A DNA stretch of 8,973 bases from a virus. Lineage: Duplodnaviria; Heunggongvirae; Uroviricota; Caudoviricetes. The position numbers were made by a program, and so were the translations under genes. Position 1 is the stretch's first letter; each line of letters begins with the position of its first letter. The notes below the pieces were generated by a model. That model worked only from the letters and a program-made list of their open reading frames with translations. It did no database searches and was not told the DNA's origin. This document shows, piece by piece, positions 1 to 7,735 of the stretch. The stretch lies in IMG/VR virus record IMGVR_UViG_2529292829_000013; one strand, 5' to 3'.

Positions 1-291
1 CACACGGACCGTGGAGGCCAGTACTGTTCAGCAGATTATCAGGCGCAACTGAAGCGGCATAATCTGCGTGGAAGTATGAGCGCAAAAGGTTGCTGCTACG
101 ATAATGCCTGCGTGGAAAGCTTCTTTCATTCGCTGAAAGTGGAATGTATCCATGGAGAACACTTTATCAGCCGGGAAATAATGCGGGCAACGGTGTTTAA
201 TTATATCGAATGTGATTACAATCGGTGGCGGCGGCACAGTTGGTGTGGCGGCCTCAGTCCGGAACAATTTGAAAACAAGAACCTCGCTTAG
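1..291 (+). CDS. insF: IS3 transposase OrfB (InsF-type), C-terminal part; 5' end lies outside the window
   Basis: The frame is open from base 1 and translates [55 protein letters not shown]...[11 protein letters not shown], the DDE-transposase C-terminus of IS3 OrfB from memory. The ORF track reports only 76-291 because it starts at the first Met. Confidence 0.8.
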
Positions 292-331
292 GCCTGTGTC
301 CATATTACGTGGGTAGGATCATGCTGTCCTC
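1..331 (+). mobile_element. Right-hand portion of an IS3 element ending in its terminal inverted repeat; the window starts inside the element
   Basis: Bases 290-331 (ggcctgtgtccatattacgtgggtaggatca) match the IS3 right inverted repeat as I recall it (reverse complement TGATCCTACCCACGTAATATGGACACAGGCC); the transposase ORF stops at 289-291 just inside the end. Confidence 0.85.
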
Positions 332-379
332 ATTGAATACAATTTAAAAGATCTTTTTTCGTCAAATACAGATCATCTA

Positions 380-949
380 ATGATCGTAGATGTTGAGGAG
401 AAAACAGTTAATGATTTCTTTAAAAACTACACACTCTCACCTTTTTCTGTAAGAAGGTTTTATCCGTCATACTTGATAGTAGAATGTGAAGATTTTTCAT
501 TGTTAAGGAACTTGGTTGCATGCTTGAATTGTGATAGCAAAACCGTGGATGTAGTTAGAAATCAAATATCACTTGCATGTCTTGCTGTCTTATCTTCAGA
601 GAAAATAGTGCAAAGTTTTTTGTTCGGAAGTCTTAATAGCTTAGGTTGTAAAGTTAAGGCTATTATTCACTCGGATATCTCAGCGTCATGGAGACTTTGT
701 GATATATCTTCAAGATTATATATGAGCGAGAGTTTGTTAAAAAGAAAATTAAAAGACGAAGGATTATCGTTTAGTAAATTAATTCTTGAAGAACGAATGA
801 TGATGGCGCAAAGATTATTGATCTACAGTAACCATACTGTCGGCAAGGTGGCGGGAATATGCGGGTATGACAATGCATCATATTTTGTAAGTGTTTTTAG
901 AGGATATTTTGGTGTGCCTCCGCACCAATATTTATCAAGATTTTCTTAG
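380..949 (+). CDS. AraC/XylS-family transcriptional regulator (AppY/EnvY/GadX-like), apparently N-terminally truncated next to the IS3 end
   Basis: 189-aa ORF whose C-terminal ~90 aa look like an AraC double helix-turn-helix (LLKRKLKDEGLSFSKLILEERMMMAQRLL...GYDNASYFVSVFRGYFGVPPHQY). Family members are usually ~240-260 aa. The frame is open back only to 347, there is no Shine-Dalgarno before the ATG, and the IS3 end is at 331. Confidence 0.7.
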   Translation: MIVDVEEKTVNDFFKNYTLSPFSVRRFYPSYLIVECEDFSLLRNLVACLNCDSKTVDVVRNQISLACLAVLSSEKIVQSFLFGSLNSLGCKVKAIIHSDISASWRLCDISSRLYMSESLLKRKLKDEGLSFSKLILEERMMMAQRLLIYSNHTVGKVAGICGYDNASYFVSVFRGYFGVPPHQYLSRFS

Positions 950-3260: not shown

Positions 3261-3622
3261 ATTAATATTAAATCGGATTATTTTTAGCGCTGAATGTGAA
3301 ATTTAAATAAAAAGGACTCTTCCATGAGTCAAAATCCTTGAAATCTTAAGGGTAAGATAAAAGGTCATTAGACAGAATGACACGTTTTATTAATAAATAA
3401 AGCTATTGTTTCATTCGTGTGTTTTTCTTTACAAAAGTAATCCTTGCTATGGTTGGTTAATCATGCGTTAATGGTGTTCTGGTTTGTTACAAAATTATCT
3501 GAAGCAGTCATTGTTATAATTTTATTATTTGTACCTCTTGAGATTTCCTTGTTGGTTTTTCTCTCTGATATTTTTTTCGGACCATTCTGCCCAAGGGCTA
3601 ACTTCTTCAAAAGGTAATAATG
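3261..3622 (+). promoter_or_regulatory. AT-rich promoter and long 5' leader region of the cold-shock gene cspI
   Basis: ~360 bp AT-rich non-coding stretch with a TATAAT at 3516-3521; CspA-family genes characteristically have long structured 5' UTRs. Exact promoter elements are not resolved. Confidence 0.4.
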
Positions 3623-3835
3623 ATGTCTAACAAAATGACTGGTTTAGTGAAATGGTTTAACCCTGAAAAAGGTTTTGGTTTCATCACGCCGAAAGATGGT
3701 AGCAAAGATGTGTTTGTCCATTTCTCAGCTATTCAGAGCAACGATTTCAAAACGTTAACTGAGAATCAGGAAGTCGAATTTGGTATTGAGAACGGACCTA
3801 AAGGCCCCGCGGCTGTTCATGTTGTGGCACTTTGA
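3623..3835 (+). CDS. cspI: Cold-shock protein, CspA family (CspI)
   Basis: 70-aa product [70 protein letters not shown] with RNP1/RNP2 motifs (KGFGFI, VFVHF); the ORF track starts one codon earlier at 3620. Confidence 0.92.
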
Positions 3836-4034
3836 GGTAGAAAATATTACAAACCATATTCACTTTAGATGCCCGTGTTGCCATGGTTCTCAGTATAGAA
3901 CATCATCTTTTGATGTTTCTGACAGGAATCCTTTCGGGGCAAAATGTATCTTTTGTAAATCAATGATGATTACATTTGATAATATTTCACAATACTTAAA
4001 TGTTAGCCGTCTATCGTTAGATTTAAGAAAGTGA
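3819..4034 (+). CDS. Putative small zinc-ribbon protein (CPCC...CIFC), overlapping the 3' end of cspI in another frame; start uncertain
   Basis: ORF contains C-P-C-C, 21 residues, then C-I-F-C, a classic zinc-ribbon spacing; its stop at 4032-4034 is followed directly by a strong terminator. The only in-frame ATG (3819) lies inside cspI and has no good SD. Confidence 0.3.
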
Positions 4035-4975: not shown

Positions 4976-5182
4976 ATGCATAAAGATCAATACACTGATG
5001 CCCCCTCCCAGGAGCAGGTTCGTGTAAAAACTATGCTTAATAGCACCATTTCGATGGGTTACCCGGATGTTGTAATTGCATGTATAGAACATCAAGTGTC
5101 TCTGGAAGCATTCAGGGCAATTGAGGCCGCGTTAGTAAAGCACGATAAGAATACGAAGGATTATTCCCTGGTGGTTGACTGA
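4976..5182 (+). CDS. Hypothetical 68-aa protein
   Basis: ATG at 4976 with GGAG 7 nt upstream; product [68 protein letters not shown]; no family recognised. Confidence 0.45.
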
Positions 5183-5530
5183 TCACCATAACTGCTAACC
5201 ATTCTGACCATTTCACAAGTGACAGAGTCAATATCGTATTCTGTCACTGTCAGGCTAATACAGCAATGCAATTCAACTACAGCAATGCCTCGTATTTAGG
5301 TGAATTTACAATATCGTCCAGTTCGGATGCCGGCTGCATTTCTGAAGATAAGGCATTTCGGTTCTCGTATTTTCCCCTCATGCTCGTCAGTCCTGCGCGT
5401 AGTAAGAAACAGGACACTCACACTAATTTGTGTGGGCATGCTGTGATGTCCTTCTGAATTATCCCCATGCCATTATGTAAAGCTCTGTTACAGATGCTCG
5501 TCACGGTTGTCAGGCTGTCGGGTCCTCCCA

Positions 5531-5570
5531 GTGGGGGGCCCTGCCACGGGGCGGGAGCGTCGCGGAAAAA
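5531..5570 (+). other. Lambda-like cohesive-end site (cosN-like core), with a probable cosB region extending to the Nu1-like start
   Basis: cacggggcgggagcgtcgcgg (5545-5565) resembles the lambda cosN region ACGGGGCGGCGACCTCGCGGG; it sits ~185 bp upstream of the Nu1-like ATG at 5735, matching lambda's cos-to-Nu1 spacing. Confidence 0.5.
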
Positions 5571-5734
5571 GGCTAGTTTTTGAAATTTCATCCGTCATCA
5601 CCACTACTGTAATAGATTGATATTAAAGTATTTTTATTTTTGTGGTGTCGATTTTGATTGTTTTTTGTTCATCACTAACACCGTTTGCCTAAAGTCGTTC
5701 GCAAGATGCATGTTTAAAACATTCTGGAGCGGGT

Positions 5735-5980
5735 ATGGATCGAGAGTTAAAAAATCTGACGCTGAATATCAGTCAACTGGCGGCACTGTCAGGTGTACAT
5801 CGCCAGACTGCTGCGGCAAGGCTGCAAAATCTACCCGTTGCAGGGGGGCATGAAAGCAACCTCAAGCTTTATCGGGTGGTTGATATTGTGTCGGCATTTC
5901 TGGCATTACCACCGCCGGTTGCAGAAGGCGAAATGGACGCGCATGAGCGCAAAGCCTGGTACCTTCTGCCCGTAAGGTGA
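5735..5980 (+). pseudogene. nohQ: Terminase small subunit (Nu1 homolog, NohQ/NohA-like), C-terminally truncated fragment
   Basis: N-terminal HTH region (NISQLAALSGVHRQTAAARLQNLPVAGGHESNLKLYRVV) parallels lambda Nu1; the ORF stops after 81 aa (Nu1 is ~180 aa) and the tail-fibre frame begins at the same point. Confidence 0.7.
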
Positions 5981-7160
5981 ATGGTAAGGCGCTTTCAGCT
6001 GATATAACACTGACGCCGAAAGATATTGGTACGCTTAACTCAACAACAATGTCATTCAGCGGTGGTGCTGGTTGGTTCAAATTAGCAACGGTAACCATGC
6101 CACAGGCGAGTTCTGTTGTTTCAATTACGTTGATTGGTGGCGCGGGATTTAACGTGGGGTCACCTCAACAGGCAGGTATATCTGAACTTGTTTTGCGTGC
6201 AGGTAATGGTAATCCGAAGGGGATTACTGGTGCTTTATGGCAGCGCACATCGACAGGGTTTACAAATTTTGCCTGGGTCAATACATCTGGTGATACTTAC
6301 GATATTTACGTTGCAATCGGAAATTATGCGACTGGTGTAAATATTCAATGGGATTATACCAGTAATGCCAGCGTGACGATTCATACGTCACCAGCATATT
6401 CTGCTAATAAGCCGGAAGGGTTAACGGACGGTACAGTTTATTCACTCTATACGCCATCAGAGCAGTTTTATCCGCCTGGCGCACCAATCCCGTGGCCATC
6501 AGATACCGTTCCGTCTGGCTATGCCCTGATGCAGGGGCAGACTTTTGACAAATCTGCCTACCCGAAACTTGCAGCCGCTTATCCGTCAGGCGTGATCCCT
6601 GATATGCGTGGCTGGACGATTAAGGGCAAACCTGCCAGTGGTCGTGCCGTATTGTCTCAGGAACAGGACGGCATTAAATCGCACACCCACAGCGCCAGCG
6701 CATCCAGTACGGATTTGGGGACGAAAAACACATCGTCGTTTGATTACGGAACCAAATCCACGAATAACACCGGGGCGCATACCCATAGTATTAGCGGGAC
6801 TGCAAATAGTGCCGGTGCGCACCAACACAAGAGTTCCGGTGCATTTGGTGGCACGAACACGAGCATTTTCCCTAATGGTTATACCGCGATTTCAAATCTA
6901 AGCGCGGGGATTATGAGCACAACAAGCGGTAGTGGCCAGACTCGTAATGCAGGGAAGACATCATCAGATGGTGCTCATACCCACTCGCTGTCCGGCACTG
7001 CTGCAAGCGCAGGCGCACATGCACATACTGTCGTATTGGTGCTCATACGCACTCCGTTGCGATTGGCTCACATGGACACACCATCACCGTTAACGCTGCT
7101 GGTAACGCGGAAAACACCGTCAAAAACATCGCATTTAACTATATTGTGAGGCTTGCATAA
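5977..7160 (+). pseudogene. stfQ: Side tail fibre protein, C-terminal portion only (StfQ/StfR-like), with a 1-nt frameshift near 7033
   Basis: No ATG start; the frame opens at 5947 inside the nohQ fragment. The product has His-rich GAHTHS-type repeats typical of Stf C-termini. After ...SAGAHAHTV the listed frame gives [15 protein letters not shown]..., while the other frame from 7035 gives [42 protein letters not shown] and ends at TAA 7158-7160, overlapping the tfa ATG. Confidence 0.75.
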
Positions 7161-7735
7161 TGGCATTCAGAATGAGTGAACAACCACGGACCATAAAAAT
7201 TTATAATCTGCTGGCCGGAACTAATGAATTTATTGGTGAAGGTGACGCATATATTCCGCCTCATACAGGTCTGCCAGCAAACAGTACCGATATTGCACCG
7301 CCAGATATTCCGGCAGGCTTCGTGGCTGTTTTCAACAGTGATGAGGCATCGTGGCATCTCGTTGAAGATCATCGGGGTAAAACCGTCTATGACGTGGCTT
7401 CCGGCGACGCGTTATTTATTTCTGAACTCGGTCCGTTACCGGAAAATGTTACCTGGTTATCGCCGGAAGGGGAGTTTCAGAAGTGGAACGGCACAGCCTG
7501 GGTGAAGGATACGGAAGCAGAAAAACTGTTCCGGATCCGGGAGGCGGAAGAAACAAAAAACAACCTGATGCAGGTAGCCAGTGAGCATATTGCGCCGCTT
7601 CAGGATGCTGCAGATCTGGAAATTGCAACGGAGGAAGAAATCTCGTTGCTGGAAGCATGGAAAAAGTATCGGGTATTGCTGAACCGTGTTGATACGTCAA
7701 CTTCACAGGATATTGAATGGCCAGCACTGCCGTAG
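7160..7735 (+). CDS. tfaQ: Tail fibre assembly protein (Tfa)
   Basis: 191 aa, [39 protein letters not shown]...; GAGG 8 nt upstream; sits immediately downstream of stf as in lambdoid stf-tfa pairs. Confidence 0.9.

Follow-up and report, generated by a model that had tools for sequence, protein, structure and literature searches.

IS3 splits an AraC-family regulator gene carried as cargo by a Qin-type defective lambdoid prophage of Escherichia coli

The IS3 end, the regulator fragment and the prophage setting

The stretch of DNA analysed here, referred to as the window, comprises 8,973 nucleotides of the IMG/VR virus record IMGVR_UViG_2529292829_000013. It opens inside an IS3 element, continues into the 3' fragment of a regulator gene and then runs through the lysis genes and cold-shock cargo of a defective lambdoid prophage of the Qin type from Escherichia coli. 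No exact match to the window was found among the complete genomes in the collection. The whole window is common to six complete E. coli genomes at 99.8–99.9% identity and full length, and the left junction of the element was deduced from these relatives.

The right-hand 321 bp of IS3 occupy positions 1–321 (+ strand) and consist of the 3' end of the orfB transposase gene, represented by its last 96 codons with the stop at 289–291, and the right terminal inverted repeat, which finishes ...GGGTAGGATCA at position 321. Pfam matches to rve, rve_2 and rve_3 were obtained on 1–291. The complete IS3 copy of strain 97.3 (locus L001; 1258 bp) ends in a sequence identical to positions 1–321; nine further complete copies from other genomes differ from the L001 copy at two positions at most, and this part of the window was matched at 99% or more in 3654 E. 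coli records. The terminal repeats (TGATC.../...GATCA) and the length of 1258 bp, seen in L001 and at nine other loci, are those of IS3, as is the DDE (rve) transposase of an element read by a programmed -1 frameshift from orfA into orfB. The frameshift site lies outside the window, and RefSeq annotates the element in the relatives as 'IS3-like element IS3 family transposase, programmed frameshift'. Sequence identity, the rve matches and the terminal repeat all agree with the IS3 right end that a preliminary description of the window had recognised at its start, and the identity of the element is not in doubt, despite the atypical target duplication described below.

The 3' fragment of the split AraC-family (PatE/GadW/AppY/YdeO-like) regulator gene was delimited by translation and lies at 317–949 (+ strand). 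Its frame is open from position 317, with an in-frame TAG at 314–316 located within the IS3 terminal repeat. The frame therefore opens five bases before the IS end at 321, and not 16 bp past it as had been proposed; the IS end had apparently been placed about 20 bp too early. Native codons 30–237 are found at 323–946 and the stop codon at 947–949, residues 1–29 alone being absent from the window. The translated fragment is 99.5% identical to residues 29–237 of the CFSAN018748 protein, the sole difference being a His created at the junction in place of Asn29, and it carries no secondary mutations relative to the intact allele. Upstream of Met49, the frame matches residues 30–48 of the intact protein exactly.

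The longest ATG-initiated ORF of the fragment (380–949, + strand, 189 aa) starts at the native Met49 and has no Shine-Dalgarno sequence. An intact AraC-type double helix-turn-helix domain was located at 707–937 (+ strand) by matches to Pfam HTH_18 and to the GadX C-terminal domain. HTH_18 covers residues 131–207 of the 210-aa translation (E=2.1e-16, 60.4 bits against a curated cut-off of 33.6), and HTH_AraC scored 43.2 bits (cut-off 26.6). The GadX C-terminal domain structure 3mkl was matched both in sequence (E=3.9e-21) and in fold (TM 0.85–0.89, rmsd 1.5–1.6 Å). [quoted passage not shown] The N-terminus is indeed short, as had also been stated, but the proposed loss of 50–60 residues has to be corrected to 48 before Met49, as judged from the 237 aa of the intact protein. 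The equivalent fragment in the relatives is annotated by PGAP as 'incomplete; missing N-terminus'.

Between the regulator fragment and the holin gene, a consensus scan identified a terminator-like G+C-rich hairpin followed by a T-run (1018–1049, + strand; hairpin at 1018–1039), which is conserved in REL606 and is probably the regulator gene's own terminator. The class II (P21-type) holin gene essQ (1140–1355, + strand; Phage_holin_2_1, E=3.3e-34, in agreement with the RefSeq annotation of relatives) is the first gene of the lysis cassette and forms the downstream border of the cargo region. The remainder of the window carries rrrQ, rzpQ, cspI, ynfN, gnsB, a tail-fibre remnant, tfaQ and pinQ. 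A search against Rfam gave no match in 1–1139 and two unrelated matches elsewhere in the window. What lies at this locus is thus, as the preliminary description had it, an AraC regulator gene of the AppY/PatE type that lacks its 5' part and directly adjoins an IS3 end, on a prophage and just upstream of the holin.

A gene for a Q antiterminator of 125 aa (Pfam PF06530) is located upstream of the cargo in every relative. Q and a terminator-like hairpin are present ~3.3–4.4 kb upstream. The hairpin, a strong one read as a putative tR', was seen in REL606, where it follows the gene for the same Q protein at a distance of ~100 bp. The cassette is ordered Q, lipocalin (opposite strand), YbgA-like (YbgA/DUF1722), AraC and holin, and this gene order was found in L001, L002, L007 and L013–L016, which include other prophages that are more complete or intact. 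The regulator had been described as sitting where Q would be expected; this is only loosely correct, as in close relatives Q is found ~3.3 kb upstream of the window start and is separated from it by cargo genes. Q, pR' and tR' have not been replaced, since Q is intact upstream and the same Q protein is followed by the hairpin in REL606. The regulator gene and its upstream region have a G+C content of 27–36%, which would be typical of horizontally acquired, H-NS-silenced DNA. In its position between the Q/tR'-like hairpin and the lysis cassette, and in its foreign composition, the gene corresponds to lambdoid late-region cargo (a moron).

The complete element and its 29-bp repeat

In strain 97.3 (L001), the complete IS3 is located at 5064–6321 (1258 bp), and directly to its left the regulator gene begins, with its native Shine-Dalgarno sequence (AGGTGG), start codon ATG and codons 1–38. 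Five of the six relatives have this left junction at 100% identity, among them the three closest ones at 99.9% (027_SK3, ABW_S38 and KFu015), and RefSeq lists the two gene halves in the relatives as pseudogene fragments on either side of IS3. The left end of IS3 reads TGATCTTACCC..., and by comparison with the relatives it is expected to be preceded in the source genome by ...GGAAATGCTGTCCTCATTGAATACAATTTAAAAG and the first 38 codons. The sixth relative, E2, has decayed further and has lost the left end of IS3 and part of the 5' fragment through a deletion and the arrival of another IS3-family element. Because the 5' fragment lies directly beyond a complete IS3 in five near-identical genomes, the gene was split by insertion and not deleted, and the comparison indicates that its 5' part is displaced by 1258 bp rather than lost. 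The preliminary description had pointed to the upstream sequence for the element's second end and the rest of the gene; in these five genomes both are found there, adjoining the element. The possibility also raised there, of a complete IS3 with the gene starting at an overlooked upstream site, did not materialise in the sense meant.

Junction analysis of L001 revealed a 29-bp direct duplication, TGCTGTCCTCATTGAATACAATTTAAAAG, flanking the element. The right copy is located at 322–350 (+ strand) of the window and corresponds to regulator codons 30–38 plus two bases; the left copy lies outside the window, at 5035–5063 of L001, just past the other IS3 end. The intact allele contains this sequence in a single copy. 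Five complete, independent assemblies, whose sources were cattle, wastewater and river water, contain the repeat, which is therefore not an assembly artefact. The target duplication of IS3 is normally 3 bp. Instead of the expected 3 bp, the copy in the window is flanked by 29 bp, while among the other IS3 copies in the same ybgA-araC-holin interval eight have 3 bp and a ninth (L011) has no duplication and is associated with a deletion. The insertion event of this copy, or its later history, is atypical.

The left junction falls in a perfect 12-bp palindrome, AAAAGATCTTTT, and a frameshifting 2-bp deletion in a paralogue is found at the same palindrome. A third, independent IS3 insertion, in LR-27, lies inside the same 29 bp with a target duplication of TAC. 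Two origins of the repeat are conceivable. It could have arisen in one aberrant integration, by strand transfers 29 nt apart or at a pre-existing staggered break at the palindrome, or by recombination within IS3 between two alleles with insertions 26 bp apart. The single-site parental alleles of such a recombination would be recognised by the junctions GGAAATGC joined to TGATCTTACCC and GGGTAGGATCA joined to AAGATCTTTT. Among the complete genomes, no parental allele with a 3-bp duplication at either junction was found, whether in the 21 records with IS3 beside the gene or in the six with the left junction. The nearest published analogy found is that of IS elements centring large duplications (Ngan et al. 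2024, PMC11708052); that study deals with other IS families and with duplications of far greater size.

The intact gene and its family

The intact, single-copy gene (714 bp, 237 aa) is carried by CFSAN018748 and by E. coli B REL606. In a search with the intact locus, an allele of at least 99% identity was present in 332 of 5426 complete genomes (~6%), in about 320 at near-full coverage, and nearly all of the alleles in the sampled rows were full length. Homologues in the databases are 237–247 aa long. An N-terminus of the form M..CS[VI]I is common to these homologues, GadW, AppY, YdeO and the PatE candidate, and M1, S6, I8 and F14 are invariant in the family alignment.

The intact protein is 47% identical to Sakai ECs_0287 (prophage Sp1) over all 237 residues without gaps. 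It is collinear over the full length (~230–237 residues) with GadW (33%), AppY (30%) and YdeO (29%), whereas similarity to GadX (41%) is confined to the C-terminal domain. The best NCBIfam model was that of YdeO, which matched along the whole length with 112.2 bits against an equivalog cut-off of 348; the GadX model gave 89.9 bits (cut-off 500). As the scores fall far under every equivalog cut-off, the intact protein is a paralogue within the subfamily and not an orthologue of YdeO, GadX or any other named member. Full-length collinearity and the conserved N-terminus place the intact allele in the PatE/GadW/AppY/YdeO subfamily.

Paralogues with 76–86% identity are encoded by isolated lambdoid phages (IdasGreatGrand, 1H12 and the Lambda_ev series), and more distant ones (~46%) by mEp332, PhiR70_1 and ev099. 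Cluster names of the homologues are the generic 'helix-turn-helix domain-containing protein' and 'AraC family', with one 'GadW'. In Sakai, ECs_0287 is the only annotated AraC-type gene of Sp1 (OI-8) and the only tblastn match in that stretch; for this reason it was taken as z0321, that is, PatE. PatE is an AraC-like activator of acid resistance encoded by prophage CP-933H/Sp1 of EHEC O157:H7 (reviewed in PMC10877973). For the prophage-encoded secretion regulators PsrA and PsrB of O157:H7, the analysis covered Sakai Sp6, which was equated with OI-50 because it carries the effector genes espK, espN and espX7; neither its annotation nor tblastn gave an AraC homologue there. By analogy with PatE, GadW, AppY and YdeO, we infer that the intact protein may activate H-NS-silenced or acid-resistance promoters (gadE, hdeA and similar).

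Fate of the remnant and comparison with known systems

A regulator of naturally ~189 aa, with IS3 simply lying upstream of it, retains practically no probability and is already refuted by the intact alleles. What could have spoken for it is a 195-aa cluster (P0012, 623 members) from an 85% paralogue, whose ORF begins at the Met corresponding to Met49. In the one member checked, a natural short form was rejected: PGAP labels it 'frameshifted', and this pseudogene has lost 2 bp at codons 39–40. The frame of the window, moreover, runs on upstream of Met49 to the IS3 boundary and matches residues 30–48, and the homologues are full length with a shared N-terminus. Homologues of natural ~189 aa length, on which the preliminary description would have given up its reading, were thus not encountered. 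Very unlikely, too, is an adjacent IS3-mediated deletion that removed the 5' part of the gene and left the regulator truly truncated in the source genome. Such an event would be compatible with a left junction that lies outside the window, with the loss of the IS3 left end and part of the 5' fragment from E2 through a second IS plus deletion, and with the deletion-associated neighbouring copy L011, which lacks a target duplication; it is opposed by the five of six genomes sharing the window at 99.8% or more that keep the 5' fragment beside a complete IS3, among them all three 99.9% relatives.

It is somewhat less remote, though still unlikely, that the remnant is expressed and active as a 189-aa DNA-binding protein starting at Met49. 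Such a protein, with no folded N-terminal domain, would regulate the genes controlled by the intact protein or by its paralogues in a constitutive or dominant-negative manner. Its transcripts would come from IS3 read-out, a weak hybrid promoter where IS3 meets the gene, or Q-antiterminated late transcription. The DNA-binding domain is complete and unmutated, and in some members of the AraC family the C-terminal domain binds DNA on its own; that of GadX has been crystallised alone (3mkl). IS3 and the gene are co-oriented, which makes read-through RNA plausible, and the consensus scan found no terminator-like site between the IS3 transposase stop and ATG380. The paralogue cluster whose ORF starts at the same Met would also favour a product from this codon, but the member checked was the frameshifted pseudogene described above. 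For translation, the pairing of ATG380 with the anti-Shine-Dalgarno sequence was calculated at +0.4 kcal/mol (native start, -5.9; holin, -10.8), in line with the earlier statement that this ATG lacks a ribosome binding site. For transcription, the consensus scan detected no sigma-70-like promoter site on the + strand in 182–932. A -10-like hexamer (TACAAT, 338–343) was considered by reading as part of an outward promoter at the IS3 end and was rejected, as it has no acceptable -35 element. In a reporter assay by Fuqua and Wagner, the wild-type 150-bp IS3 right end showed no detectable promoter activity, for which it had been picked, and after single mutations it was the most promoter-prone of the ends tested (Pnew 0.23; PMC12095673). 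The IS3 copy in the window is identical to canonical copies and therefore carries no promoter-creating mutation of this kind. Expression by read-out from IS3, a question raised in the preliminary description, consequently finds no positive support in the promoter scan, the inactive wild-type end or the missing Shine-Dalgarno sequence.

The consequences for the protein were assessed on an AlphaFold model of a 98%-identical protein (mean pLDDT 86, pTM 0.78, from a shallow alignment of 16 sequences), which as a whole resembles the two-domain regulators CsvR, Rns and ToxT. Strands at residues 3–10, 14–18, 21–25 and 29–34 and a helix at 35–47 are all located before Met49. According to the model, a product starting at Met49 would retain the DNA-binding domain, but its N-terminal domain would be without one helix and four of its six beta-strands, which also counts against an active fragment. 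With no Shine-Dalgarno sequence, no promoter-like site and the N-terminal strands gone, the remnant is most likely an unexpressed or untranslated pseudogene, and we infer a loss of function. The unmutated C-terminal ORF fits a recent event and is no proof of decay.

We consider it highly probable that the locus as a whole represents an IS3-split, non-functional pseudogene of a cargo gene in a Qin-type defective lambdoid prophage. According to this interpretation, a complete IS3 has transposed into codon 39 of the moron gene, parting the promoter region, Shine-Dalgarno sequence, start codon and first 38 codons from the remainder by 1258 bp. The remnant at 317–949 encodes residues 30–237 and is closed upstream by the TAG in the IS3 terminal repeat, and its transcription would be at best passive, by read-through from IS3 or from farther upstream or by Q-dependent late transcription.

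As an ordinary IS-inactivated accessory gene of a known regulator family, already listed as a pseudogene in RefSeq, the remnant is mostly of little consequence. The intact 237-aa protein is an uncharacterised phage-borne regulator of the PatE/AppY type, which is found in ~6% of complete E. coli genomes, REL606 included, and whose paralogues are carried by viable lambdoid phages. The surrounding interval gathers IS elements at many independent sites and is useful for the study of IS3 target choice in AT-rich DNA, and the 29-bp duplication provides a naturally occurring exception to the 3-bp rule of IS3. It is unlikely that the locus holds something more unusual, namely a non-canonical IS3 integration behind the 29-bp repeat or a constitutive or dominant-negative PatE-like fragment expressed by read-through. 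If true, the former would be a small natural case of the 'IS at duplication centre' events lately proposed on the basis of laboratory evolution.

Compared with gene inactivation by IS3 through copy-out/paste-in transposition, the locus has the complete 1258-bp element with canonical ends and differs in the 29-bp duplication. The cassette occupies the same position in the same prophage backbone as the cargo of K-12 Qin, where the order is Q, ynfS/cspF/cspB/ynfU and essQ; the prophage differs from K-12 Qin in its cargo and in the type of Q, which has 125 aa (PF06530) here and is the 250-aa ydfT product in K-12. With PatE the regulator shares its location on a prophage, a length of ~240 aa and the same two-domain layout, and both proteins carry the conserved motif at the N-terminus and the double helix-turn-helix at the C-terminus. 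PatE is located at the prophage end, beside invertase and tail-fibre genes, whereas the Qin-type gene lies in the Q-holin interval; the two proteins are only 47% identical, and the Qin-type copy described here is split by IS3. AppY, GadW, YdeO and GadX of E. coli K-12 have the same subfamily architecture. AppY is also a cargo gene of a defective lambdoid prophage, DLP12 (PMC10057817), and differs in its position, past the tail-fibre genes at the prophage end and outside the Q-to-holin interval.

Flanks of the interrupting IS3

The direct duplication flanking IS3 measures 29 bp, with one copy in the window (322-350) and the other at 5035-5063 of the strain 97.3 locus (L001), which carries the complete element, and it is common to five complete genomes. 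The canonical target duplication of IS3 is 3 bp. The left IS3 junction of the duplication is held in a perfect palindrome, AAAAGATCTTTT, within which a Dam site is found.

The allele of strain E2 (L023, upstream of the window equivalent) descends from the window allele. Here, a second IS3-family element, starting TGGACTGACCCC, takes the place of L001 4994-5100, so that the left 29-bp copy is gone and IS3 has lost its first 37 bp.

A paralogue of the regulator with ~85% protein identity sits in another prophage (L024, 1686-2406). It has a 2-bp deletion at codons 39-40, inside the same AAAAGATCTTTT palindrome, by which the reading frame is shifted, so that gene callers give a 192-195-aa ORF from Met49, the equivalent of the first ATG left in the window fragment of the regulator gene. 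ORFs of this Met49-start kind make up cluster P0012 of the protein collection, with 623 members.

Insertion sequences between ybgA and the holin

In the ybgA-araC-holin interval of Qin-type prophages (L001, L003-L011, L002 4266-5494 and L023 about 871-2100), IS3 was found at at least nine distinct sites, in a sample skewed to co-oriented IS3 copies. Target duplications were GAT, TAC, GAG, ATG, TAT, AGG, AAC and ACC. IS2, IS1 and another IS3-family element are also hosted, and this build-up suggests either that the AT-rich DNA here is a hotspot for insertion or that the regulator is under selection.

Two of the IS3 copies lie at the holin. In strain D2 (L008, 3313-4570) the element is inside the holin Shine-Dalgarno sequence (GGAGG, IS3, AGGTGAGGCTATG), and in Z1324SEC0014 (L011, 3343-4600) it is inside the holin gene, lacks a target duplication and is followed by a deletion of the downstream lysis region. 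The window holin (1140-1355) has the N-terminus MKSM, a motif with two starts, Met1 and Met4, as is typical of holin/antiholin pairs of class II (P21-type). In the mechanical ORF list its ORF reaches upstream as far as 1056.

State of the window prophage

Two Rfam matches were obtained on the plus strand: the cspA thermoregulator (3466-3881, 111 bits), which spans the cspI 5' leader and the beginning of that gene (3620-3835), and a full-length match to the family IS009 (7503-7701, 221 bits) within the tail-fibre assembly gene tfaQ (7160-7735). The window prophage is defective, since the terminase-to-tail region is absent and a DUF1441 (NohA-like) fragment adjoins a 5'-truncated tail-fibre gene (5977-7149 and 5735-5980), an arrangement shared with K-12 Qin.
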